64,000 nt of DNA from Planctomycetota bacterium (lineage in GTDB: Bacteria > Planctomycetota > UBA8108 > SXIK01). A program made the position numbers and the translations under genes. The notes under the pieces are model-generated. The model had not been told where the DNA came from and made no database searches. It saw only the letters and a list, made by a program, of their open reading frames with translations. Where the stretch lies: NCBI GenBank assembly GCA_965223265.1, contig OZ244999.1, positions 1,088,001 through 1,152,000 on the forward strand, read 5' to 3'. This document shows, in pieces, positions 1 through 12,317 of this stretch; the first letter of the stretch is position 1; every line of letters begins with the position of its first letter.

Positions 1-236
1 CGGATAAACCGGGTGGCAGTGAAACTGCCTACCGCGTTGTCACTGAAGCCTACGAATATCTCCGCAAAGGCCGCACCGCACACGACGAAAGGTACCGCGG
101 TGAGATTCTGCGCATTCACGCTCGCTACGAGAAGAGTCGCGCAGAGTACGACCGCAAAGAAAAAGAGGAGCGGCGCACGGCAAGCGGTGTGCTCGAGGCC
201 GCAGTAGACGAAACATTTTCCATGTTCGGATTTTAA
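1..236 (+). CDS. J-domain (DnaJ-like) protein, 3' part (5' end outside window)
   Basis: Not in the ORF track. Frame from nt 3 reads DKPGGSETAYRVVTEAYEYLRKG...FGF* (TAA 234-236), matching the (HP)DK-GG...V-EAY-L helix III/IV pattern of J-domains. Confidence 0.7.
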   Translation, partial: DKPGGSETAYRVVTEAYEYLRKGRTAHDERYRGEILRIHARYEKSRAEYDRKEKEERRTASGVLEAAVDETFSMFGF

Positions 237-239
237 GCT

Positions 240-734
240 GTGGCAAAAAAACGACCTGACCCGCTTCCACGATTCATTGCGATTCCAATCGCAGCTATTG
301 CGCAAGTCGCGTGGTTTCTCTGGGGAGGGCTGTTCTGTTGGGTACCGCTTGTCGCTCGCGTTCAGATTTGGGCGTGCTTAAAACTTGCTGACGCCCTTCG
401 AAGAGGAAAACACCGCGTTGCATCAGCCTCAATTCGGCGCGAGCTAAGACTGGCCGCAACTTTTTACGTGGACGGCGTTATCGCAATAAATTGGGCGCTC
501 TTTCCTATCTCAGTGTCTCCCGAAAGGGAGGCAGAGCTCACAGAGGAAGAAGAAAACGGCGCCGAACAAGACGAAGACCCGCGTCACCGGCGCGCTCGAG
601 CAGTCGTGCACGTCATGTGGAGTGCTGTGTTTTGGATTCTCGTTTTCTCTCCACTGTCTGGTTTCCGCTGGCTGCTTGAACTTGTCGGTGGGCTCATTCG
701 CGCAGTCCTTACACTTTTTGGGCTCTATTCATGA
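240..734 (+). CDS. Hypothetical membrane protein
   Basis: 164 aa with several hydrophobic segments; stop overlaps the next start (ATGA). Confidence 0.6.
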   Translation: MAKKRPDPLPRFIAIPIAAIAQVAWFLWGGLFCWVPLVARVQIWACLKLADALRRGKHRVASASIRRELRLAATFYVDGVIAINWALFPISVSPEREAELTEEEENGAEQDEDPRHRRARAVVHVMWSAVFWILVFSPLSGFRWLLELVGGLIRAVLTLFGLYS

Positions 735-2391
735 ACTACCTCTTTTTCCCGTTCGCTTTTGCGTGCCGCTTTGCTCTCTGGCTTGTCAGTGAGCTTCCGC
801 TTTTTTGCCTACGGCAATGTATCCCAGTGACGCTCGGGGAGTTCTTTGCGCTACCGCTTCTACCGCTCTTTCTTCCGTTTTATGTACTCTCTTTTTTTGG
901 TGCGTTCCTTCTTCGTGAGTGGCTTTTCTTTCTTTCACTTCGCTCAAAGCCGCTAAGGAGAAGGCTTCGGCCAGGAGAGCTTTATCTCGGCGAAGAACTT
1001 GTCACAACGCCTGACGGAATGCCCTACGAGACTCCAAGTGGTGAGACCCTGGTCACTGGCTTACCCCTTTCATTCTCGTGGGAGGAGGCTGTGTGCGTTT
1101 TTATTCTGGGTTCGCCGGGCACCGGGAAGAGTGCCTTAGCTGACCGAATTATGGCCGCAGAAATTAGGCAACAGAAATGAACACACTTTCCGTGTATATC
1201 GATTGTGGCGGTAAGGACGTTGAGCACAGCGCGCTAATGCGGGCAGAAGCCAAAGCAGCTGGCGTGCATTACCATCACGGCAGTTTCGACGCTGAGCTCT
1301 CTCATTCAATGCCGCTTTTACGTTTACTCGCTCCAACGGTTGCCGGGCGTACGGATTTCGCAGCGCAAGTGGTGCGAGTGCTGCGCGTCGGGGAGGGGGC
1401 CGCGACGTATTGGGAGGCTCGTGCACGGCAGAAGCTTGCGGAAATAATCGAGAGTCACCCGGACGCGGACACCTTTGCGCGGATACACGCTCACCTGCGA
1501 AACGATTCAGATAAGGACACGCAGGGTCTCGTCGATTCGATTGGCGAGTTTGCCGAGCTTCGGCAACTGAATGTGTCCGCCTTCGAAAGTTTTCCTCAGG
1601 AGGTTAGAGACTACGAATTCGACTTTTCGAAATGGCTGCGCGAAGGCAACCACTGTGCCTATGTCAAGGCTGCGCGAATGCACTCAGCTGTTCCACTGTT
1701 GTTGCTTTCGCTTGCAGAAGCAACGCGCGTCCACAATTCAAACCCAGACAACGAGCGGTGCAGAGTTGTCGTGGTCATTGACGAAGGACACCGAGTCATT
1801 CCTTATGCGCCAGACCTGTTCGCACGATTAATTGCGTTGGCTCGCGCCTTCTTCCTGCGTCTTGTTGTGGTGCAACAAGGTACGTCCCAGCTGGAAGCGG
1901 CGGGCGGAGAACAGCTCGTGCAACAATTTGCCGACTCTGCAATCACGACCTTGTTTGGAACGGCGGACGGAACGCACCGCGTGTATGGATTAGAGCATGA
2001 AGTTCAGGAGCAGCAGGTGCACCCGGATACGGGCATTGTCAGCATTGTGCGTAGGCCACTTTTAAACCCAGCGCTTTTCACGTGGCTGCAAAGTGCTCGC
2101 GCAGCGCGTGGCGTTTGCCTTGTCAGAACACCGACGCGAACTGACAGACTTTACACCATGGTGCGCTCTCCTTTTGCCACTGACTTTGAGACATTCAAGC
2201 GGCTTAAAAAACGCGGGTGGCCCAAGGAAGGCGAGCTAAAAGGCGCGCTTCCCGCGGTACCAGTTTCTGTGTTTGGCAAGCGAGAGGACGACCACGACCA
2301 GGGCGAAGCCGGTGACAGCAAGCCGCCACCCAAGGACGACTTTTACCGAAAGCGCAGCCAACGAAAGAAAAGAAGGAAGCAGACAGCATGA
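731..2391 (+). CDS. VirD4/TraD-like (type IV coupling/FtsK-HerA family) ATPase, split into two ORFs at ~1177
   Basis: ORF 731-1180 has N-terminal TM helices and Walker A GSPGTGKS. ORF 1177-2391 continues VYIDCGGKD and has Walker B VVVIDEGH plus a ARAFFLRLVVVQQGTSQL motif typical of TraD C-terminal domains. One extra A in CAGAAATG would fuse them. Confidence 0.65.
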
Positions 2392-3014
2392 CTGACGCTT
2401 TGACCCGAGCGGGAGACCAGGACTCCGCTCGCAAGCTCCCGCTTCCTGGAACCTTCGATTACATGCTGTTCATTCGTGAGCGCTTTTACGCTGCGCTTTC
2501 GAAGCAGAGTGGAGCGCTTTGCGACGGACCGTTCCGTAGGTGGCAGGACTTCGTCGTGTCACAAATCGAGTGGCTTGAACGTGCGCAGGCAGCGCTTCGA
2601 GAAGAATTCGAGCGCGAAAGAGGGCGTGCTCCAAGACCAAGCGGTCAGACGTGGTTAGACGAGATTGCGCTATCTGTCTACCGGTACAGACCTGGCACAC
2701 CAGGATTTCAGTGCGAAGTCGAAGCCGAATTCTACCGCGCTACAGAACTTCAGTGGCTTGCGTGCGCTGCAAATGGCGACGCGTTTTTGCTTCGGATAGC
2801 CCGGAAAGACCTTGAATGGCGCAAGAAGGTGTACGACACCGCGCCGCCCGATTTCCTCGAGCCTGACCCGAGTTACCGCTACGCAGAAACGGGTATTGAC
2901 CGTGCACTTCACGACCTTGGGAAACGAATCGAAGAGGCGAAGGACTTCCTTAAGTTCTGCGACGACAACGGCATTGACCCGAACAATCTCAGAAAGAAAG
3001 GAGACACAACGTGA
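2388..3014 (+). CDS. Hypothetical protein
   Basis: 208-aa ORF translationally coupled on both sides; no recognised motif. Confidence 0.6.
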   Translation: MTDALTRAGDQDSARKLPLPGTFDYMLFIRERFYAALSKQSGALCDGPFRRWQDFVVSQIEWLERAQAALREEFERERGRAPRPSGQTWLDEIALSVYRYRPGTPGFQCEVEAEFYRATELQWLACAANGDAFLLRIARKDLEWRKKVYDTAPPDFLEPDPSYRYAETGIDRALHDLGKRIEEAKDFLKFCDDNGIDPNNLRKKGDTT

Positions 3015-3298
3015 ACGACCAGATTGACCTCGAAAAAGTCGACGACCAGACCCGTGAACGACTCGAAGCGGTCGTTGCTGAAGGACGCGTCAAGAGGGAA
3101 GCAGCGAAGCTCATTGCCGACGGCCTTGAGCTCGAGCAGAAAGCGCACGAGAAGTACCGCAAAGCGCAAACGCTTCTGACAGGCAAGACGGAGAGGAAAA
3201 AGCGCGGCAGACCGAAGAAGGCAGACACCGTAGAGGACGTCTCAGACGTGCGCGACAGGCCGCGACCGACAGTCATTGCAGCGGGAAACGCCCAATGA
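3011..3298 (+). CDS. Small coiled-coil protein with basic AT-hook-like KKRGRPKK motif
   Basis: RBS AAGGAG upstream; GTGA overlap with the previous stop. Confidence 0.6.
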   Translation: MNDQIDLEKVDDQTRERLEAVVAEGRVKREAAKLIADGLELEQKAHEKYRKAQTLLTGKTERKKRGRPKKADTVEDVSDVRDRPRPTVIAAGNAQ

Positions 3299-3324
3299 AG
3301 TTGAACCACGCACCCTTAGTTGAA

Positions 3325-3563
3325 CGTACACCCAACCGTACAGGCTTCGCGGCCTTTGTACGGCTACGTGTACGGATTGAGATTTAGAAGGCACTACGTG
3401 CCAACCATTTGTGGCTGGTGACATTTCGTCGAAAGCACCCGCCACAAATGGTGGGCTTGAAACAGTTTCAACCCCTTTAGATAGAGAGGAAGACCGGCAA
3501 CATGCGAGTTCCAATCGCGTGGTGGTTCAATTCGAGTCCCACGCGCCGGTCTTCCGCTTTTTT
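3325..3563 (+). other. Highly structured non-coding block (candidate ncRNA, ssDNA origin/promoter or oriT region)
   Basis: Consecutive stems: 3325-3374, 3390-3402, 3404-3452, palindrome TTGAAACAGTTTCAA 3457-3471, and 11-bp stem GGAAGACCGGC/GCCGGTCTTCC 3488-3555 followed by a T-run. Confidence 0.6.
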
Positions 3564-3692
3564 AAGAATGAGTTTTTGTAGCCAGCCGACGGGTGAATTT
3601 GCGTCGGCAGCTGTGCGAATTTCCTCCAACGAGCGACCAGAGTCCGCCGGTTATTCGGACTGGCGAATTGTGGAAACCAAATGGAGGGAGAT

Positions 3693-3890
3693 ATGGAAAA
3701 GAGGGAATGGGCGGTGTGTTTCACAGTCGACACAACCGCAAGCGTTATCGTGGAGGTTCTTGCCGCATGCGAGGACGAAGCGCATGAGCTTGCGTGGAAG
3801 GTGTTCGACGATTCGCCCGAGCTCGCCTTTGAGCCTGACGATTATATGGGAGAGCCCTACGTGTCTTGGGCAGACCCCAATACTGATTGA
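3693..3890 (+). CDS. Small acidic protein (cassette 1), DpnD/PcfM-like pattern
   Basis: Strong RBS GGAGGGAG; VIVEVLAACEDEAHELA resembles the V-V-A-xxEEA motif of small mobile-element proteins. Confidence 0.65.
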   Translation: MEKREWAVCFTVDTTASVIVEVLAACEDEAHELAWKVFDDSPELAFEPDDYMGEPYVSWADPNTD

Positions 3891-4109
3891 GGCTCAGCAC
3901 AGCACACACACCCGGTCGGGGGTCTCATTTGCGAGAGCCCCGGCCTTTCAAATCGAATCCAAACGAATGACTTTCTGTAGCCAGCCGACGGGTGAATTTG
4001 CGTCGGCAATAGCTGTGCGTTCTTCCTCCCCACGTCCGACGTGGCCAGATTCCGAGGTGATTTTCTTAGCGCCTCGAATTGTGTTAAACGTCAACCAATG
4101 GAGGAAGAA

Positions 4110-4289
4110 ATGGAAGAAGAGACCCGCCGCAACTCCGACGCCATCAATGCTTTGCATGCTCGTATCACGGCACTCGAAGACACAGTCGCGTTTCTGCTCA
4201 CAGAACTGCGAGAACAGTCCCGAGGCCGTACCACTACGGAATACCTTGCGGAAGCCGTGGAAGAGTTCTTGCGAAAGATACGGCGATAG
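4110..4289 (+). CDS. Small coiled-coil protein (cassette 2)
   Basis: RBS GGAGGAAG; MEEETRRNSDAINALHARITALEDTVAFLL heptad pattern. Confidence 0.6.
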   Translation: MEEETRRNSDAINALHARITALEDTVAFLLTELREQSRGRTTTEYLAEAVEEFLRKIRR

Positions 4290-4383
4290 CGGCTCCAACG
4301 CGCGCAGCACCGTCGGTCGGGGTTCTCATTTACGAGGGCCTCGACCTTTCAAACTCAAAGAATTCTGACGAGTCATAGGACCA

Positions 4384-4824
4384 ATGCTCGACGAACCATT
4401 CTGCTACGCGTGCGGTGGCGAGATAGACGCAGAACAGAATCGTCTCTGCTACGTGTGTTATTTCCAGCAGATTGCTGAGGCGCACCAGGCTCTCTCGAGG
4501 CTTCTCGCTGTGATTCACCGAGCAATTACCTTGAAAGAATGCGGACAACGTGAGCTCTGGTCACATTTTCAGAAAGTGGACGTCGCGCTCGAGCGCTTTT
4601 CTGAATTTCGAGGAACTGACCTTTACCTTGAGGACGCGCTCTACAGTGAAACGCCTCCGAATTTCCCGAGGGCGTACTGTCTTCTTGCGGGCGCCATTTC
4701 CTCCGTGTTCAAGCTTCGAATTCCAGAAGACACTCCGCGTGTGCAGCGTATTCAACCACTGCTTTTCAAGGACGAGCCCGACGAAAAGTGCGAGCTCCCT
4801 TGGTCAAACCTTTACCCGTCTTAG
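4384..4824 (+). CDS. Hypothetical protein with N-terminal zinc ribbon
   Basis: CYAC...CYVC motif; RBS AGGA. Confidence 0.55.
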   Translation: MLDEPFCYACGGEIDAEQNRLCYVCYFQQIAEAHQALSRLLAVIHRAITLKECGQRELWSHFQKVDVALERFSEFRGTDLYLEDALYSETPPNFPRAYCLLAGAISSVFKLRIPEDTPRVQRIQPLLFKDEPDEKCELPWSNLYPS

Positions 4825-4887
4825 AAAGGAAACCCCATGGTTGCGTGCTTCGTTGAGTAAGAAACCGCCCTGTGGGAGAATCCAAAA

Positions 4888-5334
4888 ATGAGTGATAAAT
4901 ACCACCCAAAAGGACGAGTCTTCCGCCGCAAGGACGGGCCGTGGGAATTCCAAGTCGACCCTCACGACTTGCTCTGGATTCTGATTCACAACGAGAAGCC
5001 CCGTTACCGTGTAGTCTGGCAAGGAAACCCGCAGGGTGAGCTTGAGATAAAAGACGTCTCTTTCTTCAAGGAAGACGGCAAGCCGCAGCCAGAGCTCTTT
5101 CAAGCGGGACACGCAAAGTCACGCGACGGTTTCCTCGGCCTTTGGCAAGGTGCTTGCCGCGAAGCACTTGCCGTTTACCGCGGTGAGTCGCCAATTTCTC
5201 CCGAGAGCTACAAAGACGCTGTGTTGCTCCTGTCCAAAGTCGGCCTACCGCCAGACCTCACCCAGGTTGCGATACAGGCTGCTGAAGAGTTCGAGTTTCT
5301 TCAGTGGCTCAAAGACTCAGTAAGCCTGAATTAG
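4888..5334 (+). CDS. Hypothetical protein
   Basis: 148-aa ORF with RBS GGAG, co-oriented with neighbours. Confidence 0.55.
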   Translation: MSDKYHPKGRVFRRKDGPWEFQVDPHDLLWILIHNEKPRYRVVWQGNPQGELEIKDVSFFKEDGKPQPELFQAGHAKSRDGFLGLWQGACREALAVYRGESPISPESYKDAVLLLSKVGLPPDLTQVAIQAAEEFEFLQWLKDSVSLN

Positions 5335-5367
5335 TCCAACCCCGATTTCCAAGAAAGCCAAAGCCAA

Positions 5368-5541
5368 ATGAACACAGTACTGGAGCGAGCCGACCGGTGG
5401 CTCAAAGCGAAAGGCGGGGCGTTTGCCGTTGGGCTTGTCCTCGGCAAGGGTTTTTTGATTGTCACTTCGGCGTTCAAGCCGCGCGAATGCCCGCGGTGCG
5501 TCGAGCGGGAAAACCCGTCGGCAGAAAGGAGCAACGAGTAG
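5368..5541 (+). CDS. Small membrane protein with CPRC motif (57 aa)
   Basis: Below the ORF-track cutoff: MNTVLERADRWLKAKGGAFAVGLVLGKGFLIVTSAFKPRECPRC...*; stop overlaps the GTG of the next gene. Confidence 0.4.
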   Translation: MNTVLERADRWLKAKGGAFAVGLVLGKGFLIVTSAFKPRECPRCVERENPSAERSNE

Positions 5542-5828
5542 TGAACGTGCTGTCAAAGCTCGCCGAGTACCCGGCGGACGCACTACTTGACCAGGCCGCC
5601 CTCGCTGAAGCCCTTGGCGTAACCAAACGGGCTGTGCGCTACCTTGTTGCCCGTAACGAGCTACCGCCACCGTTTGCCCTCTGCGGAAAGCGATGGCTTG
5701 CGGGCAAGGTTCGCGAATTTCTCAACGCGAGACAGGACCAGGCGATACGCGAAGCAGAAGCGGCAGCCGAACACGAAGCCCGACTACTCGGTGAAATCCC
5801 CGCTGTTCCACGGCGCCGCGCCCGGTAG
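5541..5828 (+). CDS. Excisionase/AlpA-like HTH protein (element 1)
   Basis: LLDQAALAEALGVTKRAVRYLVARNELPPPFALCGKRW; RBS AAGGAG; directly upstream of the integrase. Confidence 0.8.
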   Translation: MNVLSKLAEYPADALLDQAALAEALGVTKRAVRYLVARNELPPPFALCGKRWLAGKVREFLNARQDQAIREAEAAAEHEARLLGEIPAVPRRRAR

Positions 5829-5859
5829 AATGACGCCGCAAAAACAAGGACAACTCGAA

Positions 5860-7242
5860 ATGGCCGAAAAGAAAAAGCGCGCCCGCAATGACGCGGGCCA
5901 CCTCTACCAAAGAACTCCCAGAGGATTCTGGTACGGACGCTGGTGGTCTGGCCCAGAGAATGCTCGTGTCCGGAAGAAGGCCCGCCTTCACCGTGATAAA
6001 CGCGAAGCACAGAAGCTACTCGACAAGCTTATCGCAAAGGAAAAAGCGATTGACGCTGGTATCATTGCGCGCCCGAAGACTGGACGGCAAGAGCACGCTC
6101 TTTCTACGGTCGTTGACGAATACCTTGAGTGGGGTGCGTCCGCTGGTGGTCTCCGCGGTAGACCCTGGTCAGCCGAAACGCTTCGCAAAAAGGAGCAGCG
6201 GCTTAGCTGGTGGCGCGAAGAGCTTGGCTTTGAGTTTGTCTCTGAGCTTGCCGGAAGTCTCTCTCTGGTTGAAGAAAGCCTGCGCGGCTTGTTCCGAGAG
6301 GAAAAAGACGACGGAACGGTTATCGAGCGCACCGGGAAGACTGTCCAGAACTACGCGGAGGCTCTGGCCTCGTTTTGCGACTGGTGCGCAAGGCGGGAGT
6401 TCCTTGAGACTGACCCCCTAAAAGACCTCGGTAAAATCGACACGACGCCTGCGGTTACGCGGCGAGCGCTGACCGTCGAAGAACTCCAGGCGCTTCTTGC
6501 CGTGGCACCACCGAAGCGACGCCTTACGTATCAGGTGGCCGTCTGCACTGGACTTCGTGCCGGTGAACTCGAGGAGCTGACAGTTGCGCACCTCGACAGC
6601 GAGCGCGGCGGCTTGAAGCTTGACGCTGCCTGGACAAAGAATCGAAAGCCAGGCTTTCAGCCGCTTCCGTCAGCTATCCTCGACTCGCTCAAGGAAAAAG
6701 CTCGTTCAAAGTCACCGACAGACCCGCTCCTCTACGTCGGTTCGAACATGAGCCGAGACATTGATTCAGACTGCGCAAAAGCCGGTATCGAAAAAACGAC
6801 GTCTGAGGGCAAAGTGGATTTCCATGCATTGCGTTCCGCCTTCACTACGCTGGTTATCGAATCGGGTGCAAACGTAAAGGAGACTCAGGAGCTCGTTCGC
6901 CATTCAACGCCACAGCTCACCATGGATATCTACGCAAGAGCACGCAACGAGCGGCTCGCGAACGTCGTGGAACAGGTTGGCGCAGTAGTGCTACAAACCG
7001 GAAGGAACACACCACCAAACGGAACGAGAGGGGAACCGAGCGGCATGCGCGTTGGGCCCCCTGTGGGCCCCAGCGAGACAAACGACGAAGACGACGGTGA
7101 CGTAAGTGACAGTGACGCAGACTGCTTAGCGCGAGTCACTACTCACCCTGCCAGGGGGTTCGATTCCCCCCGCCTCCACCATCTTATGATCGACGGAAGT
7201 CCCAGCCGCAGATTCGGTTGGGACTTTTTCGTTGGGGGGTGA
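5860..7242 (+). CDS. Tyrosine recombinase/integrase (element 1)
   Basis: Catalytic motifs TGLRAGEL, TKNRK, HALR, RHS, DIY; C-terminus reads through the att core. Confidence 0.93.
   Translation: MAEKKKRARNDAGHLYQRTPRGFWYGRWWSGPENARVRKKARLHRDKREAQKLLDKLIAKEKAIDAGIIARPKTGRQEHALSTVVDEYLEWGASAGGLRGRPWSAETLRKKEQRLSWWREELGFEFVSELAGSLSLVEESLRGLFREEKDDGTVIERTGKTVQNYAEALASFCDWCARREFLETDPLKDLGKIDTTPAVTRRALTVEELQALLAVAPPKRRLTYQVAVCTGLRAGELEELTVAHLDSERGGLKLDAAWTKNRKPGFQPLPSAILDSLKEKARSKSPTDPLLYVGSNMSRDIDSDCAKAGIEKTTSEGKVDFHALRSAFTTLVIESGANVKETQELVRHSTPQLTMDIYARARNERLANVVEQVGAVVLQTGRNTPPNGTRGEPSGMRVGPPVGPSETNDEDDGDVSDSDADCLARVTTHPARGFDSPRLHHLMIDGSPSRRFGWDFFVGG
7053..7071. repeat. Putative integrase arm-type sites (element 1 side)
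   Basis: Direct repeat TGGGCCCC at 7053-7060 and 7064-7071 (11-bp period), ~83 bp left of the att core. Confidence 0.45.
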
Positions 7243-8403
7243 GAAAGGCCGTGGGGGCAATATGGGGGCATCAGGTTGACCGGGATCGTCCTCATCCCGA
7301 CCGGAATCGTCCCCATCCCCGCCGAGGACCATCCGACCGACGCTCTCCGCGATTCGGGCGAGCCCGTCCTCTTGGGTCCTGGCGTAGGTCTTCATGGTGA
7401 TTCGTGGATCGGAGTGGCGGAGCAGCGACTGGGCCTCTTTGACGTTCGCCCCGGCGTTGACCACCAGCGTCGTGTAGGCGACCCGACAAGCGTGGAAATC
7501 GACCTTGCCCTTCCCGGAAACACGCTTTTCAATGCCCGCCCGGACGAGATCCACGTCGAGTTCGCGAGCGGGGTGGCTCGGAACGTAGAGCAGCGGGTCC
7601 TCGGGACCTTTGTCGGCGGACTCGACCCGAAGTCGTTCCACTAGCTTCTGGGGTAGTGGCTGAAATCCTTCCTTCCGGTTTTTCGTCCATGCAGGGTCGA
7701 GACTCAGCCCGGATCGTTCGGTGTCGAGGTGCTGCACTTGAAGCTGACGCAGTTCGTTTGCGCGGAGCCCGGTGCAGAACGCGACTTCCAAGAGTAGACG
7801 ACGCACTGGTGGCGCGACCGCCAACAGGCGCTGAATCTCCTCTTGGGTCAGCGCCCTGCGTTCCTCCTGTGGCGTTGTGTCGATCGGGGCAAGATTCTTC
7901 AGTGGATTTTCCGCGAGAATCTGTCTTTCGACACACCAGACGCAGAACGCAACGATCGTTTCGGCATAGTTCGATAGCGTCTTGCCGGTGGAGCCCGTTT
8001 CCATCAGCGCTTGGAGGGCTTCCTCTACCCGGCCGAGAGCACCCTCAAGATCCGAGACGCACCTCAGCTCCAGTCGGTCGTTCCACCATGAAAGCTGACT
8101 TCTTCTCTTGCGCGTGTGTTCGGACGCCCAGGGTCTACCATATCGTCCACCCTGGGTTTCACCCCACGCGAGATAAGCGGCGGACGCTTCGTCGAACGGG
8201 CGGTCTTTCGGCTTGGGTCGAGGAAGGTGTCCGCTTCGGATCGCGGCCTGTTTCGCTTCGATCTTCGCGGCGATTCTCTCGGTCTCTGTCTTTGACGTTG
8301 TGCCGGTTCCCTTGCGTTTTCGACCTTGCCAGTCGCGATACTGAAAACGCCAGCGGGGGTGAGGTTTGCCGTTCTTGTTGTGGGTTCGGTGCACGTAAGC
8401 CAT
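7126..8403 (-). CDS. Tyrosine recombinase/integrase (element 2)
   Basis: Start MAYVHRT with RBS AAGGAG; motifs TGLRANEL, TKNRK, HACR, RHS, KTY; ends MVEAGGIEPP..., the antisense reading of the ssrA 3' end. Confidence 0.93.
   Translation of the reverse strand: MAYVHRTHNKNGKPHPRWRFQYRDWQGRKRKGTGTTSKTETERIAAKIEAKQAAIRSGHLPRPKPKDRPFDEASAAYLAWGETQGGRYGRPWASEHTRKRRSQLSWWNDRLELRCVSDLEGALGRVEEALQALMETGSTGKTLSNYAETIVAFCVWCVERQILAENPLKNLAPIDTTPQEERRALTQEEIQRLLAVAPPVRRLLLEVAFCTGLRANELRQLQVQHLDTERSGLSLDPAWTKNRKEGFQPLPQKLVERLRVESADKGPEDPLLYVPSHPARELDVDLVRAGIEKRVSGKGKVDFHACRVAYTTLVVNAGANVKEAQSLLRHSDPRITMKTYARTQEDGLARIAESVGRMVLGGDGDDSGRDEDDPGQPDAPILPPRPFSPPNEKVPTESAAGTSVDHKMVEAGGIEPPGRVSSDSR
7154..7181 (+). 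mobile_element. ssrA: Attachment site: 3'-end fragment of tmRNA (T-arm, acceptor half, CCA)
   Basis: GGGGGTTCGATTCCCCCCGCCTCCACCA is the typical ssrA 3' end; the upstream sequence is integrase coding sequence rather than a tmRNA body, so this is a displaced fragment. Confidence 0.8.
7197..7229 (+). terminator. Rho-independent terminator after the ssrA 3' fragment
   Basis: AAGTCCCAGCCG-CAGATT-CGGTTGGGACTT followed by TTT. Confidence 0.75.
7252..7270. repeat. Putative integrase arm-type sites (element 2 side)
   Basis: Direct repeat TGGGGGCA at 7252-7259 and 7263-7270 (11-bp period), ~71 bp right of the att core. Confidence 0.5.
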
Positions 8404-8512
8404 TGGAATGATCTCCTTCTCAGATGATGTTACTCGAAGCAGGTAAGTGGAGACTGTTCTGACTGAAGGCAGGACGATGAGAGCGCTACGCGGATCGTGA
8501 AGGGGAACGCGA

Positions 8513-8779
8513 TCACAGGAGAGCATCGAGTTTCCCGGATAGATGTCCTGACTTCCGGGCAGCGTCTTTTGAACGGTCGTTCAGGTACTGGAGGACCGTG
8601 CCGGCGTTCCAGACTTTCTTACCGCCGAGCCTAATACCCGCTGGGATCTCGCAGCGACTGATCATTCGTCGGATCGTTCTCGGTGACACGCCAAGCGCGT
8701 TTGCGAGGGCTCTAAGATCGAGGAAGCGGTCCTCGGGCTGCTCGGCGAACTCCGTAATGACCAAGGGGGGCTTTTGCAT
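8513..8779 (-). CDS. Excisionase/AlpA-like HTH protein (element 2)
   Basis: FLDLRALANALGVSPRTIRRMISRCEIPAGIRLGGKKVW. Confidence 0.82.
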   Translation of the reverse strand: MQKPPLVITEFAEQPEDRFLDLRALANALGVSPRTIRRMISRCEIPAGIRLGGKKVWNAGTVLQYLNDRSKDAARKSGHLSGKLDALL

Positions 8780-8883
8780 GGGATTCCTCCGTGAGTTGAT
8801 GGTATCGATGCGTCTTGTGACGAGTCGATCGGAGCTTTCGTCGCTCGCGATCAGTACGAACCATTGTCACGGCGACTACGGAA

Positions 8884-8910
8884 CGGAATAATCCCGATAT
8901 GATTATTCCG
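8884..8910. promoter_or_regulatory. Perfect inverted repeat upstream of xis2-int2 (candidate operator)
   Basis: CGGAATAATC-N7-GATTATTCCG; half-site ATTATTCCG recurs at 9007-9015. Confidence 0.5.
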
Positions 8911-9007
8911 GCGTCTGAGTGGCGAACCTCACCAATCCGCAGACGTTGCAGAATGCCTCGGCACGGACGGAAAAAAGACAAGGGACTTGACAGCTCCCAG
9001 AATCGAA

Positions 9008-9808
9008 TTATTCCGACTGTTTCTTTCCGGCTTGACGGTGCCGATGTCGATCGAGAGCCTGCCTTACCTCGTCTTTCGTCATTCGCAAATCCCGCCCCAA
9101 CTCTTCGTACGTGGAGCCCCGTGGCCGCGCGATCCACGCTTTGTGGACTTGTTGGTCTTTCTTGGGATCGGTCTTTCGGGGACGGCCCCGTCGCGTGCGT
9201 CGTGGCTTCGAGAGAGGGCGGCCCTCCTCTCCGGCTTCGCTATAGCGCGGCGCGGCTGATGGAAAAGAAGGAGGGGTTGGCGCTGGCGGACTGCCGCTGC
9301 TTTTCGTCAGTCCCCGCTTTGCCTCGGCTTCAAGCTCGCTCTCATCGTCGCGTAGCCTCTCGCGCATTCGCTTTACTCCGACGGCGAATCGGCTCCACTC
9401 CTTTGGGCATTCGATTCTTTCGGCGACGAAGTGGCTGCGGAACTCCTCTGCGAAGGTCAACTCGTCACCGACGCTCAAGACGGAGTACGCCTTAGTCCCG
9501 ACCAGGCGCCTTGCAGTATCTTTCAATCGTTGGTTGAGATCGTCGAAGCCTGGTTCGTCGAAAAGCTCCGTTAGGTTGCACAAAGCCAACCGCAGTCGTT
9601 CGTAGGCTTCGATCGAGCGCGTCGAGCAGCAAACCTCGAATTCGTCCAGCACCCGCTGGCACCGAGATGCCAGTTGTTCCTGAGCGGAAAGAACGTCTAG
9701 CCGGACGTTGAAGGCGTCGAAGTCGAATGGATCGGACGGGTAATCCGATCTGCTGTGCTTTTCCTGGTTTTCGTCCGAGCTTGACGATTTGTGGGCAGGC
9801 TTCGACAT
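9008..9808 (-). CDS. Hypothetical protein with C-terminal AT-hook and HTH-like segment
   Basis: RRGRPRK followed by STYEELGRDLRMTKDEVRQALDR. Confidence 0.55.
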   Translation of the reverse strand: MSKPAHKSSSSDENQEKHSRSDYPSDPFDFDAFNVRLDVLSAQEQLASRCQRVLDEFEVCCSTRSIEAYERLRLALCNLTELFDEPGFDDLNQRLKDTARRLVGTKAYSVLSVGDELTFAEEFRSHFVAERIECPKEWSRFAVGVKRMRERLRDDESELEAEAKRGLTKSSGSPPAPTPPSFPSAAPRYSEAGEEGRPLSKPRRTRRGRPRKTDPKKDQQVHKAWIARPRGSTYEELGRDLRMTKDEVRQALDRHRHRQAGKKQSE

Positions 9809-10178
9809 CGGATGAGGTGACCTCGGCAAGGTTGAGAACGGACCCTTCTGTTTATCGGCAACCGCGAAAGCCTCTCTCCACTTGATTCCACAATCTGTTG
9901 ACGACAGTCTCGTAAACTTCTTTTCGGCTGCGTTGCTTCGGAGATTTCATTGACGGTCTGTTTCCGAGGTCACCGGAATTGTGTCCCTCGGTTGGAGCCT
10001 CCATTCGGGGGGGACCCGTTTCTACAAGCAGGACCGGATTTGCGGTGTGCCGCGGATCGATGGTCGGGTGTCTGACGTAATTCAGTCGCGCCGCGTCCCG
10101 CTTCGTTGTCGTCTCGTCCTTCCCATCAGAAGCGGTACAATACGCCCTCGGACCCAGGTTGGTTTCGGAGGATATGCA

Positions 10179-11147
10179 ATGCCCCTATCGCCGAAGGATT
10201 TCGGAGCGTCTTTCCAGCAGTTCATGGATCAGATGGCATCGCAGGCCGGACCACAGGAACCGGTCTTTGTGAGTCGGCTCCGAGAGCACTTCGGTACGGA
10301 ACCCACCAGCCTTCCAATCGTCTCGGAAACCTTCGCGGAACATGATCACCCAAATCTTCAGTTAGCAATCGACTCGCACCTAAAAGCCGATGGACGCACC
10401 TCGGAGGTCATCGGCATCATTTCCGAGCACGCCTTCTTCGGCGCAAGCCTCTCGGCGCTCGTCGCACCGACCGGATCTGGTATGTACCGTGGACCTGGCG
10501 CATCGATCGGTCCGGTCAAGTACACGAACATAGCACTCGACGGTGATCGCGTACTGACCTGTGTGCAATGCGGACTGTTTCTCATCGAGGAGGGGGAGAA
10601 GCGTCTGGCGGTGCTGTTGCAAGGGCCAGTCAGGGAACGACACTATCCAAAGGGCACCGTCGAGGTGATGGCGGCAGACAAGACGTTTGGCGAGGAATTC
10701 CTGGCCGAGCTACGAAACTCGATCAGAACGAACAACGTCTACCGGGGGAGAGTGCTCTCGGTCGGTCAGGACGAGCTGATGCGTACCCTGAAGATCGAGT
10801 TTCACCACCTTCCCGAGATACCCCGCGAAGGCATCATTCTCCCAGACGGACTCCTGGACCGGATCGAACGTCAGACAGTTCGGTTCTCAGTCCATAGCGA
10901 GCGCCTACTCCAGCAAGGCCGACACTTGAAGCGCGGGCTCCTTCTCCACGGACCGCCGGGAACGGGGAAGACACTGACTGCAATGTACCTGTGCGGCGCG
11001 ATGGAGGGCCGCACCGTCTTGCTCCTGACCGGACGTCGTGACTGGTCAAAGACGCCCGAAACCACAATTAGGGCAGAGAACGCCCATTTCGAAGCTGTCC
11101 GCGACGTTCCGAACAGCAGCGAACCAGCCGCGGGACTTCGCGAATAG
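10179..11147 (+). pseudogene. AAA+ ATPase, truncated shortly after Walker A
   Basis: KRGLLLHGPPGTGKT is present, but the sequence diverges at ~11035 with no Walker B and runs into the convergent ORF. Confidence 0.65.
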
Positions 11148-11342
11148 TCCGAAGCTGTCATAGGTACACTCGTCGCCTGTTTCGGTCCCGAAGTGTTCGT
11201 TATGAAGGGTCTGTCCGCACTTGTCACAAACGAATAAGTTCCCAGTCAAGAACGCCGCCCACTTGTACTCGTCGTCGCGATCGGAAATCTCCAGATTGAC
11301 CATGTTCGAGGCCTCAGCGGCTAGTTTTTTTCCCTGAGTCAA
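11046..11342 (-). CDS. Small zinc-binding hypothetical protein
   Basis: CDKC...CPNC; start overlaps the region just after the ferredoxin. Confidence 0.5.
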   Translation of the reverse strand: MTQGKKLAAEASNMVNLEISDRDDEYKWAAFLTGNLFVCDKCGQTLHNEHFGTETGDECTYDSFGLFAKSRGWFAAVRNVADSFEMGVLCPNCGFGRL

Positions 11343-11345
11343 CCC

Positions 11346-11612
11346 TCAGCGGGGCTTTTTCTCTGTGATGTTGGGGAAGTCGAGGGCTCGCTCCGCGTTG
11401 AGCGCGATGAATTTCTGTTGGTCGTCCGGCACATCCGCGTCAAAGAATATCGCCCCCTCGGGGCATTCAGCGACGCACAGGTCGCAATCCGTGCAAGTGT
11501 CAGGATCAATGTAGAGCATGTCCGCGCCCTCATGAAAGCAGTCCACAGGGCAGACGGTGACGCATTCGGTGTGTTTGCAGCCGATGCAGGCTCCGGTCAC
11601 AACGTGTGGCAT
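11346..11612 (-). CDS. Dicluster (FdxA-type) ferredoxin
   Basis: MPHVVTGACIGCKHTECVTVCPVDCFHEG...CTDCDLCVAECP. Confidence 0.92.
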   Translation of the reverse strand: MPHVVTGACIGCKHTECVTVCPVDCFHEGADMLYIDPDTCTDCDLCVAECPEGAIFFDADVPDDQQKFIALNAERALDFPNITEKKPR

Positions 11613-11720
11613 GAGCATCTCGCTTTAAGAGTAAAGTCGCGAACGAAATTAGTGCGGCTACATCCCTGAACAGGATCTACCGGCAAATCGGACAGCCTCT
11701 TGCTAAAATAGCTGGGAGGA

Positions 11721-12317
11721 TTGCCAGCCGTGTCCCCGGAAGAACAAACCGATTTTCAGCTCCTCATCCAGCGTGTTCGCGATGGGGATCAGGACGCGGC
11801 CGCGGAGCTCGTCTACCGGTTCGGGCCTCAGATTCGTCGAGTGGCCCGCTTCGAGCTGGCGGCCGCGCGACTGCGACGCATTTTCGACTCGGTCGACGTT
11901 TGGGACTCCGTACTGGCCGCTTTCTTCGTCCGAGCCGCGTCGGGTCAGTTCGAGATCGATACACCCGAGCAGCTCCTGGCTCTTTTGGGGACGATGGTTC
12001 GCAATCGTGTCCGTAACCACGTCGAGCACGAGCAGGCAGCCAAGCGTGACCGCCGCCGACTGGCCGACAGAGCCGTCGATGTCGCGGACCCCATGTCTCG
12101 CGATCCGACTCCCAGTCGCCTTGTCGCTAACCGCGAACTACTGGAAGAATTTTTCCGCCGCCTGCCGGAAGAAGAACGTACAGTTGCGCAGCGTCGAGCC
12201 ACGGGCGCCTCGTGGGAGCAGATTTCGAAAGAGCTCGGCTGCCCCGTAGATACTCTCCGCAAGCGATTGACCCGCGCGTCCGATCGCGTAGCACAGCAGC
12301 TTGGGCTTGCAGGATGA
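11721..12317 (+). CDS. ECF sigma factor (planctomycete kinase-associated type)
   Basis: LLIQRVRDGDQDAAAELV, FDSVDVWDSV, TPSRLVA and a region-4 HTH; coupled to the kinase gene. Confidence 0.85.
   Translation: MPAVSPEEQTDFQLLIQRVRDGDQDAAAELVYRFGPQIRRVARFELAAARLRRIFDSVDVWDSVLAAFFVRAASGQFEIDTPEQLLALLGTMVRNRVRNHVEHEQAAKRDRRRLADRAVDVADPMSRDPTPSRLVANRELLEEFFRRLPEEERTVAQRRATGASWEQISKELGCPVDTLRKRLTRASDRVAQQLGLAG

Follow-up and report, generated by a model that had tools for sequence, protein, structure and literature searches.

Two tandem mini-genes of about 400 bases lie on an integrated mobile element in the stretch of Planctomycetota DNA analyzed here (contig OZ244999.1; 64,000 nucleotides, hereafter the window). 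They have a near-identical folded leader and terminator, yet encode unrelated small proteins. This raises the question of what a conserved non-coding frame does around differing cargo. The reading that we consider rather likely is that these are two self-contained, moron-like genes with a common leader that occludes the Shine-Dalgarno (SD) sequence, located on an integrated mobilisable island.

Anatomy and cargo of the twin units

Unit 1 (3566-3964, plus strand) consists of a 5' block, a leader, ORF1, a terminator, and a spacer, and unit 2 (3965 to approximately 4372, plus strand) has the same frame with ORF2, both being delimited by repeats (families D1-D3 for unit 1) and alignments. Similarity between the units begins at 3566, upstream of which the sequence is unrelated, and at the far end of unit 2 similarity to the sequence around the unit 1/unit 2 junction is gradually lost at about 4365-4372. 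The repeat search recovered direct repeats of 44 nt (3566-3609 and 3965-4008; 95% identical, spacing of 399), 19 nt (3609-3627 and 4011-4029; 84%), and 40 nt (3913-3952 and 4314-4353; 88%, spacing of 401). The identical stretch between the units is 33 nt long (3577-3609 and 3976-4008) and carries GCCGACG-N10-CGTCGGC, so repeat search and sequence both agree with the original prediction of units 399 bp apart that share such a 33-mer. Allowing up to three mismatches, a 32-mer matched twice in the window and not once in 100 dinucleotide shuffles. Conservation is highest in a 53-nt block including the hairpin loop (51 of 53 positions identical), and ahead of the leader no other sequence is conserved in both units. 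The leaders (approximately 135-150 nt) align end to end up to ATGGAA with a mean column identity of 83% (alignment A2); the likeness first described for the CGAATTGTG...CCAA(A)TGGAGG regions is real and covers the whole leaders. Similarity stops about 8 nt past each start codon and returns about 8 nt ahead of each stop codon, and both units have strong GGAGG-N5-ATG starts. Contigs from two DNA runs match the window exactly and break at the repeats. Both units descend from one ~400-bp frame, and the picture of a conserved non-coding frame with differing cargo holds, with leader and terminator conserved around unrelated small ORFs.

ORF1 (3693-3890, plus strand) encodes a very acidic protein of 65 aa (17 acidic and three basic residues, counted from the sequence) that belongs to a rare small-protein family. 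ORF2 (4110-4289, plus strand) encodes an orphan protein of 59 aa with a predicted two-helix hairpin. Both proteins are hydrophilic and acidic. The codon log-likelihood is +0.425 per codon for ORF1 (-0.357 and -0.203 in the other frames) and +0.257 for ORF2 (-0.212 and -0.442), which is within the range of four neighbouring island genes (0.25-0.43). The GC content by codon position (0.62/0.41/0.62 for ORF1) matches that of neighbouring genes for both ORFs. Judging from these signatures, ORF1 and ORF2 appear to be real coding genes. Alternatively, a single 288-aa protein with an internal repeat may replace the two mini-genes (3502-4368, read in the +1 frame with respect to both ORFs). This frame is open across the whole array, and none of 2,000 first-order Markov simulations reached 288 codons (mean of 115, maximum of 275). 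However, its codon log-likelihood is -0.357 in the ORF1 segment, -0.212 in the ORF2 segment, and about 0 over the leaders, and it has no Pfam match. In addition, its ATG lies within a terminator hairpin and is not preceded by a ribosome site, the frame would cross two terminator hairpins, and the homologues of ORF1 confirm ORF1's own frame. The chance that this single protein is the true product is practically negligible.

The two ORFs were originally described as unrelated, and three tests indeed show no similarity between them. BLASTP gave no alignment at E ≤ 100, the local DNA score was 9 compared with a shuffle mean of 9.07, and all nine frame pairs tested were matched or beaten by at least 25 of 200 shuffles. 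ORF1 has two distant homologues, both metagenomic, namely P0003 (contig of 1,394 nt; 38% identity; E = 2.2e-4 in a search of 1.84 billion proteins) and P0004 (contig of 1,849 nt). The ORF1 profile had no match in 400 other genomes of the phylum or in viral contigs, and its best E-value against PDB sequences was 0.68. For ORF2, the sole match among 5.8 billion proteins was ORF2 itself, and no match was found in 400 other genomes of the phylum. Neither ORF reaches a family cut-off in Pfam, PHROGs, or NCBIfam. A DpnD/PcfM-like assignment (PF14207) for ORF1 was considered and rejected, as ORF1 and P0004 gave no match and P0003, one of the three members of the ORF1 family, scored 19 bits (E = 0.0014) against a gathering cut-off of 25 bits. 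Neighbours in the Atlas are unnamed small proteins (phage ones in the case of ORF1) or coiled-coil families scoring below 0.9. One Atlas cluster near ORF1, at 0.89, has PF14207 in 11% of its members, which is a lead only. The AF2 model of ORF2 has a mean pLDDT of 81.5, with helices at residues 2-36 and 41-58. The structure search proposed with the original prediction returned for this model no PDB match at E ≤ 0.001 (Foldseek), just generic helical hairpins; the ORF1 model (pLDDT of 50.7) is unusable and too poor for comparison with ORF2.

The repeat structure may also be explained by a plain ~400-bp tandem duplication that has no special function, with conserved blocks that are undiverged or were homogenised by gene conversion. 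As expected of a tandem duplication, the start and end of the array correspond to one position within the unit (GAATGA... at 3566 and at 3965, with similarity fading at about 4372), and there are just two copies, with no relatives found in the searched genomes. However, the divergence is very uneven, with 96% identity in the 53-nt block, 88% in the terminator, and coding parts at chance level. Moreover, stem substitutions preserve pairing (see below), and both ORFs keep their coding signatures and strong starts. This pattern is unlike neutral decay, and we regard plain duplication as distinctly unlikely. Since the cargo differs, either duplication of the frame was followed by replacement of one ORF through recombination in the conserved flanks, or the frame captured a second ORF. 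A GARTSAY-like short sequence is present at all three unit boundaries (3566, 3965, and approximately 4366).

Folding of the leader, terminator, and invariant block

In both leaders, the MFE and centroid folds pair a CCUCC strand with GGAGG. The anti-SD strand of unit 1 (3618-3627, plus strand; AAUUUCCUCC) pairs in the MFE fold with the SD strand (3683-3692, plus strand; GGAGGGAGAU), which abuts the ATG at 3693. In unit 2, the anti-SD strand (4020-4029, plus strand; UUCUUCCUCC) forms 10 of 10 pairs with the SD strand (4100-4109, plus strand; GGAGGAAGAA), which abuts the ATG at 4110. The two copies have the same predicted architecture, with z-scores of -2.60 and -2.80 (for each leader, two of 200 shuffles were as stable). 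Within one series of folds, the probability of SD/anti-SD pairing is 0.92-0.97 for unit 1 (four of four folds) and 0.997-0.999 for unit 2, such that all eight folds lie between 0.92 and 0.999. Models of the full-length mRNAs gave 0.97-0.999 at 28 and 37°C. In a unit 1 construct with 32 nt of coding sequence, the probability of an unpaired GGAGG rose on cooling, from 0.26 at 37°C to 0.67 at 28°C and 0.91 at 20°C; as modelled, SD occlusion in unit 1 is construct-dependent. An RNA thermometer was rejected as a candidate, as the corresponding probability for unit 2 was 0.001-0.005 over 20 to 45°C and the modelled helix, at least in that unit, is too stable to melt.

Substitutions between the copies are in line with these folds. 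Standard pairs occupy 50 of 52 pair cells (96.2%), compared with 33-57% when the partners are slid by one to three columns, a control with a built-in bias, since these two sequences also supplied the structure. A column-shuffle control was uninformative (245 of 500 shuffles as high). In the anti-SD/SD helix, four of 10 pairs differ between the copies, comprising one A-U to U-A double change, two U.G pairs that become C-G or U-A, and one mismatch replaced by U-A. When substitutions are placed at random, as much pairing is kept in 0.2% (copy 1 to copy 2) or 2.9% (copy 2 to copy 1) of cases, with n = 2 copies; two copies from one genome only do not permit a statistical test of covariation. The units resemble SD-sequestering leaders (RNA thermometers, riboswitch platforms, and type I toxin mRNAs) in that CCUCC pairs with GGAGG in both copies, and an anti-SD/SD helix is predicted in every copy. 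Unlike those leaders, the present ones show neither an evident ligand pocket nor a conserved antisense promoter, and they have no Rfam match. An E-value search of 1-12000 against Rfam gave only tmRNA-like matches, at 7096-7247, and places the leaders in no described family. A type I toxin-antitoxin system was rejected because both proteins are hydrophilic and acidic and a minus-strand promoter-like site is found in unit 2 only.

Each unit has a terminator hairpin followed by UUUCAAA, and the originally described 13-bp hairpin plus TTTCAAA was found in both units. In unit 1 (3914-3952, plus strand), the 13-nt arms (3914-3926 and 3933-3945) form 12 of 13 pairs around a 6-nt loop. In unit 2 (4315-4353, plus strand; arms at 4315-4327 and 4334-4346), all 13 pairs form, three of which are G.U or U.G. 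The first description held that substitutions in this hairpin mostly keep pairing; all four arm substitutions do so (T.G to T-A, G-C to G.T, G/G mismatch to T.G, and T-A to T.G). Under random substitution, 0.3% or 6.7% of trials reach the same degree of pairing. The stems are 7-8 kcal/mol more stable on the plus strand than on the minus strand (-25.4 vs. -18.3 kcal/mol in unit 1, -23.7 vs. -15.7 kcal/mol in unit 2), and their G.U pairs work only in plus-strand RNA. Both terminators fail the T-run rule of the promoter/terminator scan, with a tail of just UUUCAAA. A strong hairpin with T6 precedes unit 1, and the unit 1 terminator precedes unit 2. With a terminator-like hairpin ahead of each unit, each plausibly needs its own start.

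The 5' hairpin P1 of unit 1 (3579-3613, plus strand; MFE and centroid folds, pair table) has an outer helix UAGC/GCUG (3579-3582 with 3610-3613) and a 7-bp inner helix GCCGACG/CGUCGGC (3585-3591 with 3602-3608) with a 10-nt loop (GGUGAAUUUG). The inner part of P1 in unit 2 (3978-4015, plus strand) is the same as in unit 1, and a 3-nt AAU insertion (4008-4010) separates the inner and outer helices, both of which are intact. The invariant hairpin shows no variation between the copies and is thus uninformative on whether its role is in RNA or DNA. One possibility, although we lean against it, is that GCCGACG-N10-CGTCGGC and its flanks constitute a promoter/operator through which a dimeric island regulator co-represses both units, with the hairpin being irrelevant as RNA. 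The high conservation of the 53-nt block including its loop is what sequence-specific recognition would predict, and this block alone is conserved upstream of the leader. A candidate regulator is the HTH_17/MerR-like helix-turn-helix protein encoded 1.3 kb downstream of the units (5304-5828), which has sub-threshold Pfam matches and matches to PHROG excisionases/regulators (E of 4e-6 to 7e-8). However, a sigma-70 scan of 2800-5400 found no -35/-10-like boxes on the plus strand, with a consensus that may not be the host's, and the half-site centres in the sequence are 17 bp apart, which is no whole number of helical turns. Furthermore, the outer helix contains a U.G pair and tolerates a 3-nt insertion, for which RNA is the better fit. 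The lone promoter-like site in the scan lies on the minus strand inside leader 2 and is absent from unit 1. In a comparison by eye, the spacings of the sigma-54, ECF, and Bacteroidetes-type promoter consensus motifs do not fit the 53-nt block. A search of the island for a trans-encoded antisense RNA against the block found no complementary stretch of at least 11 nt. Control by an operator can coexist with the SD-occluding leader that we favour.

The host island and known mobile systems

An island of ~71 kb, inserted at the tmRNA gene, carries the units at a distance of approximately 3 kb from its integrase end. The element was originally described as VirD4-bearing. The island is mobilisable and encodes both a coupling protein and a TrwC relaxase; this part of the description stands, whereas the early or anti-defence role is not supported. 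The TrwC operon is located at 3557-7692 of locus L034 (minus strand), near an iteron-rich intergenic region at approximately 8250-9040 of the same locus. The units are ~15 kb to the right and are on the plus strand, opposite to the relaxase operon. A palindrome cluster (3299-3565, 268 bp) adjoins the array. For the coupling-protein-like gene, the sole relative (G002; 32% identity) is followed by unrelated sequence with no comparable repeats. A neighbouring gene for a 146-aa protein had no match in 58 genomes of the class.

The original prediction interpreted the hairpins as single-stranded DNA promoters of the Frpo/ssi type in a conjugative element's leading region, where they would drive early expression of anti-defence proteins. 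Samuel et al. report that the first 30 ORFs of leading regions are enriched for anti-defence genes (PMC11541004). An oriT upstream of the relaxase operon would be ~15 kb from the units, making these roughly the 18th and 19th mechanical leading-side ORFs, which is within those 30. The relaxase and coupling protein of the island and the small, very acidic ORF1 product also fit, and, as with Frpo/ssi elements, small ORFs of a transferable element are preceded by repeated non-coding elements that contain hairpins. However, the Frpo fold is described as a mimic of double-stranded DNA in which -35, -10, and UP elements are present together with the sequences complementary to them (PMC11541004). The single-stranded DNA folds of four stretches here (one on the plus strand, three on the minus strand) are branched sets of 5-13-bp hairpins that lack a long -35/-10 stem, and promoter-like boxes are absent from the plus strand of 2800-5400. 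The G.U-dependent stems are specific to the plus strand, which is the sense strand, whereas in Frpo the template strand must fold. Transcription also leads away from where oriT is presumed to lie and runs counter to the relaxase operon. In the usual transfer polarity the relaxase enters last (PMC11541004), and with the units opposite to the relaxase operon the transferred strand is probably not the template. In that study, Frpo/ssi elements were recognised by BLAST similarity (E of 1e-6) to the five sequences known (PMC11541004). Our blastn search (word size 11) of 3560-4365 against 72,556 plasmid records, among which Frpo-bearing plasmids are expected, found no match at E ≤ 0.01, an indirect comparison made through plasmid records. 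For anti-defence cargo, neither ORF has the family match in Pfam, PHROGs, or NCBIfam that might identify it. We consider the single-stranded promoter reading highly improbable.

The tandem arrangement of ~400-bp units, in which unrelated small ORFs are combined with a linker that is both conserved and structured, is reminiscent of integron cassettes. Unlike the attC site, which is one imperfect palindrome, the linker here consists of two separate hairpins and a leader, and unlike in those cassettes each unit has its own ribosome site and terminator. Read from the sequence, 3880-4020 contains no GTTRRRY/RYYYAAC core and no GTT at all. In addition, the neighbouring tyrosine recombinases score 33.1 and 41.3 bits against the integron-integrase model TIGR02249, for which the cut-off is 265. 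The lack of an attC palindrome or core and the low recombinase scores led us to reject an integron cassette. A further idea is that the ~400-bp frame, made up of the invariant hairpin block, the SD-occluding leader, and the terminator, is a portable expression cassette exchanging unrelated small ORFs by recombination in the flanks or at the GARTSAY-like sequences, with co-regulated early effectors (e.g., anti-defence proteins) as cargo and 3299-3565 as a transfer or priming site that could bring the array to the front of the DNA being transferred; we hold this to be quite improbable.

Close parallels to the two self-contained genes that we favour are the morons of temperate phages, autonomous units of promoter, ORF, and terminator that lie between backbone genes. 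By the criteria given in PMC2920897, the units are like morons in being small accessory ORFs with their own predicted terminator and apparently their own start. Their place on the mobile element is between its integration module and genes of the mobilisation type. Three features differ. The host is an integrative mobilisable island and not a phage, the GC content of ORF1 and ORF2 (both 0.55) does not depart from that of the backbone (0.53-0.59 in six neighbouring genes), and the two units combine unrelated ORFs with the same leader and terminator, a trait foreign to the moron concept.

Distribution, proposed mechanism, and implications

The twin-unit motif was seen in one genome only among those searched. 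Within this genome (9.18 Mb), a 28-mer allowing up to three mismatches matched just the two known sites, blastn-short found nothing further below E of 0.8, and the next-best E-values from nhmmer --max were 0.044 (leader) and 0.17 (terminator). Searches of Planctomycetota genomes with the 33-mer/hairpin pattern and a covariance model had been proposed at the outset, and they revealed no further units. The pattern was found in none of 20 other genomes of the order and in no viral contig, and covariance model R1 had no match in 58 other genomes of the class or in a sample of 150 other genomes of the phylum. The blastn search of 841 bp in 400 other phylum genomes gave only matches of 19-50 nt (best E of 6.4e-4 per genome), which were taken as chance. 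Among genome contigs, two pattern matches in Nocardioides and Binatia records were rejected as chance, because they lie in GC-rich sequence and have no leader features. The original prediction named as signs against itself a repeat occurring nowhere else together with a lack of covariation; of these, only the first agrees with the results, since no further copy was found in the collections searched and pairing-preserving substitutions are present in the two sequences.

In the proposed mechanism of the two moron-like genes, each unit has four parts. The first is the invariant block of 33-53 nt, with its GC-rich hairpin at or around the transcript start, which may work either at the DNA level, as promoter/operator, or as a stem-loop at the 5' end of the RNA. 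The second is a leader of ~100 nt, in which the CCUCC strand is predicted to pair with GGAGG across a variable inner hairpin in both copies. The third is the small ORF, which differs between the units, and the fourth is the GC-rich terminator hairpin, whose G.U pairs are functional just in plus-strand RNA. Both mRNAs would be made with the ribosome site occluded, such that translation may be off by default. Because a common leader occludes this site, the two units are probably co-regulated at translation. They may be switched on jointly, either by a common trans-acting factor (protein or RNA) that reads the invariant hairpin block or through the kinetics of co-transcriptional folding.

The evidence comes from one locus in one genome of a poorly studied lineage. 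If the frame were indeed a portable cassette, mobile elements of this lineage would hold modular arrays of co-regulated early small effectors. If the leader truly controls translation, it would represent a new cis-regulatory RNA motif that couples two unrelated small proteins. Such a leader motif, if real, would provide a handle on small accessory genes that are overlooked by gene callers and homology searches.

A tandem pair with a common frame and different cargo

A repeat search in the window recovered three families of direct repeats with a common spacing of ~400 nt, namely a 44-mer (3566–3609 and 3965–4008; 95% identical), a 19-mer (3609–3627 and 4011–4029; 84% identical), and a 40-mer (3913–3952 and 4314–4353; 88% identical). 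Unit 1 spans 3566–3964 and unit 2 spans 3965 to ~4372, and both ends of the array fall at the same position within the unit. The original observation of a tandem repeat with a hairpin-bearing 33-mer was borne out: 33 nt that contain the hairpin GCCGACG-N10-CGTCGGC are fully identical between the units, and a 32-mer with up to three mismatches allowed matched twice in the window, compared with none in 100 shuffles. The leaders can be aligned from GAATGA to ATGGAA (mean column identity of 83% with gaps tolerated), and similarity returns ~8 nt 5' of each stop codon and extends across the terminator hairpin and about 20 nt of spacer. The paired mini-genes are real and non-random.

Each unit encloses one short ORF preceded by GGAGG-N5-ATG (ORF1, 3693–3890, 65 aa; ORF2, 4110–4289, 59 aa). 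When scored with codon statistics learned from 446 long ORFs in this genome, ORF1 and ORF2 reached +0.425 and +0.257 bits per codon in their own frames and were negative in the other two; four neighboring genes scored 0.25–0.43. GC contents by codon position (0.62/0.41/0.62 and 0.63/0.43/0.58, respectively) also resemble those of the neighbors. As judged from sequence, both are real genes and mutually unrelated. BLASTP gave no alignment between them at E ≤ 100, their local DNA score equals the shuffle mean, and in each of nine frame pairs at least 25 of 200 shuffles equaled the real score. The proposal of a conserved frame around differing cargo therefore stands, with leader and terminator alignable and the ORFs dissimilar.

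ORF1 has two distant homologs (62 and 67 aa), each on a short metagenome contig, that share the motifs VC.T, AH..A, and YVSW..P. ORF2 has no relatives but itself among 5.8 billion proteins and none in 400 other genomes of the phylum; its model predicts a two-helix hairpin (pLDDT 81.5), whereas that of ORF1 is unreliable (pLDDT 50.7). Neither protein passed the curated thresholds of Pfam or NCBIfam. Against PHROGs, the matches of ORF1 are all weak (E 0.011 and 0.028) and to families of unknown function, and ORF2 has no match. A DpnD/PcfM-like match of one ORF1 relative (19 bits, cut-off 25) is a mere lead. A 288-codon open frame (3502–4368, +1 frame) also spans both units. Its length was reached in none of 2,000 Markov simulations, and it lacks a coding signal and a Pfam match; a gene caller may report it instead of both mini-genes.

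Predicted leader, terminator, and upstream structures

As RNA, both leaders adopt the same architecture in minimum-energy and centroid folds. The predicted 5' hairpin has a 7-bp inner helix and a 4-bp outer helix (UAGC/GCUG), which still forms despite a 3-nt insertion in unit 2. Next, AAUUUCCUCC in unit 1 and UUCUUCCUCC in unit 2 are predicted to pair over a long range with the ribosome-binding strand immediately 5' of the start codon, and this helix closes a variable inner hairpin. In the alignment of both leaders, standard pairs fill 50 of 52 pair cells, compared with 33–57% for slid partners. Four of the 10 pairs in this anti-SD/SD helix changed between copies, one of them by a double change from A-U to U-A, and pairing was kept or gained in all four; random substitutions matched this in 0.2% of trials in one direction and 2.9% in the other. 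A shuffle control of the pairing did not discriminate with two sequences, as 245 of 500 shuffles scored no lower. Full-mRNA models gave probabilities of 0.97–0.999 for pairing of the ribosome site with the anti-SD block, and in a unit 1 construct cut 32 nt into the ORF the site was mostly open at 20–28°C. The shared leader is thus predicted to occlude the ribosome site in both units.

Substitutions in the terminator stem mostly keep pairing, as had been proposed: despite four changes between copies, 12 of 13 and 13 of 13 pairs form (by chance, 0.3% or 6.7%). The stem is 7–8 kcal/mol more stable on the + strand than on the – strand because three pairs are G.U, and the structural constraint therefore acts on the + strand RNA. 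The tail is only UUUCAAA. No promoter was identified for the units, with no promoter-like boxes on the + strand in 2800–5400. The sole sigma-70-like site there (4087–4060, – strand, TTAACA-16-GAAAAT) lies antisense within leader 2 and has no counterpart in leader 1.

Directly 5' of unit 1, a 268-nt non-coding stretch (3299–3565) holds a cluster of five near-perfect palindromes and finishes with a T6 run. It folds as RNA to –113.1 kcal/mol (shuffles –75.3 ± 5.0; z –7.6), and the fold of the – strand is just as stable (–116; z –7.25), which places the symmetry at the DNA level. It has no second copy in the genome and no Rfam match, and could serve in transfer or priming, terminate transcription in both directions, or encode an ncRNA. 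One contig of run X3 (570 nt; from a second sample in the same study) departs from the window at position 3537, within the last palindrome, where 30 of its letters differ. The palindrome may have caused an assembly artifact, or the contig may cross a variant junction.

A tmRNA-site island and the ssDNA-promoter hypothesis

The last 28 nt (G000:C1:1023847–1023874) of the only tmRNA gene in the genome (G000:C1:1023522–1023874) are repeated directly at window 7154–7181, where Rfam likewise reports a tmRNA fragment. This repeat delimits an island of ~71.3 kb, with both units located 3.2 kb from its right end and flanked by orphan genes. The island encodes a TrwC relaxase and a TrwB-type coupling protein, in agreement with the coupling-protein-bearing mobile host originally envisaged, as well as ParA, a RepA-like protein, an excisionase-like HTH protein (5304–5828), an integrase (5644–7242, +), and a weakly scoring second coupling-protein-like gene pair (731–2391). 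VirB4 has no match anywhere in the genome, so the island looks mobilizable rather than self-transmissible from its gene content.

The integrase gene and another tyrosine-recombinase gene (7126–8526, –) converge on the 28-nt repeat and overlap it; this arrangement points to two tandem islands at the tmRNA site. Next to the units, the coupling-protein-like gene is broken up into two ORFs (149 aa and 404 aa) that overlap at ATGA. A single-frame relative (open over 610 aa, with an ORF of 601 aa) occurs in genome G002 (L042, contig C145, 12068–13873), the only one in 58 other genomes of the class. A frameshift may have turned the split copy into a pseudogene, or it may represent a two-gene version. 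An intergenic, iteron-like run of GGTGG/CCACC words upstream of the TrwC operon (L034 8360–8440; G000:C1:1076360–1076440) is a candidate for the island's oriT or origin of replication.

The units had been proposed to be Frpo/ssi-type ssDNA promoters with anti-defense cargo. As described by Samuel et al. (PMC11541004), Frpo folds so as to imitate duplex DNA and carries –35, –10, and UP elements; it is located in the leading region, where the orientation of the genes makes the transferred strand their template. The ssDNA folds of the unit region are branched small hairpins, the strand-specific stems sit on the sense strand, + strand boxes are lacking, and none of 72,556 plasmid records shows similarity. 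If oriT lies in the iteron-rich region, the units would be ~15 kb into the leading side and would point away from oriT. They run opposite to the relaxase operon, and given this presumed oriT and the usual polarity, the transferred strand could not serve as template. Neither the ssDNA-promoter reading nor the anti-defense reading is supported. The comparison with integron cassettes likewise breaks down, as the locus lacks an attC-type palindrome or core and an IntI-type integrase.

Distribution and overall interpretation

The genome contains two copies and no more. Wider searches of Planctomycetota, which had been suggested as a check, found no additional copy: the motif was not found in 20 other genomes of the order, the covariance model had no hits in 58 other genomes of the class or 150 of the phylum, and blastn of the unit region found nothing in 400 other genomes of the phylum. 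Searches of plasmids and viral contigs found no copy either. Two exact pattern matches in species-representative genomes were attributed to chance, having GC-rich surroundings and no leader feature. So far, the paired-unit locus is confined to one genome.

Taken together, we favor, with moderate confidence, an interpretation as moron-like mini-genes that share an SD-occluding leader and a terminator and carry unrelated cargo. The locus would be a further instance of autonomous accessory units and, from the predicted folds, its leaders a further instance of the known SD-sequestering kind.
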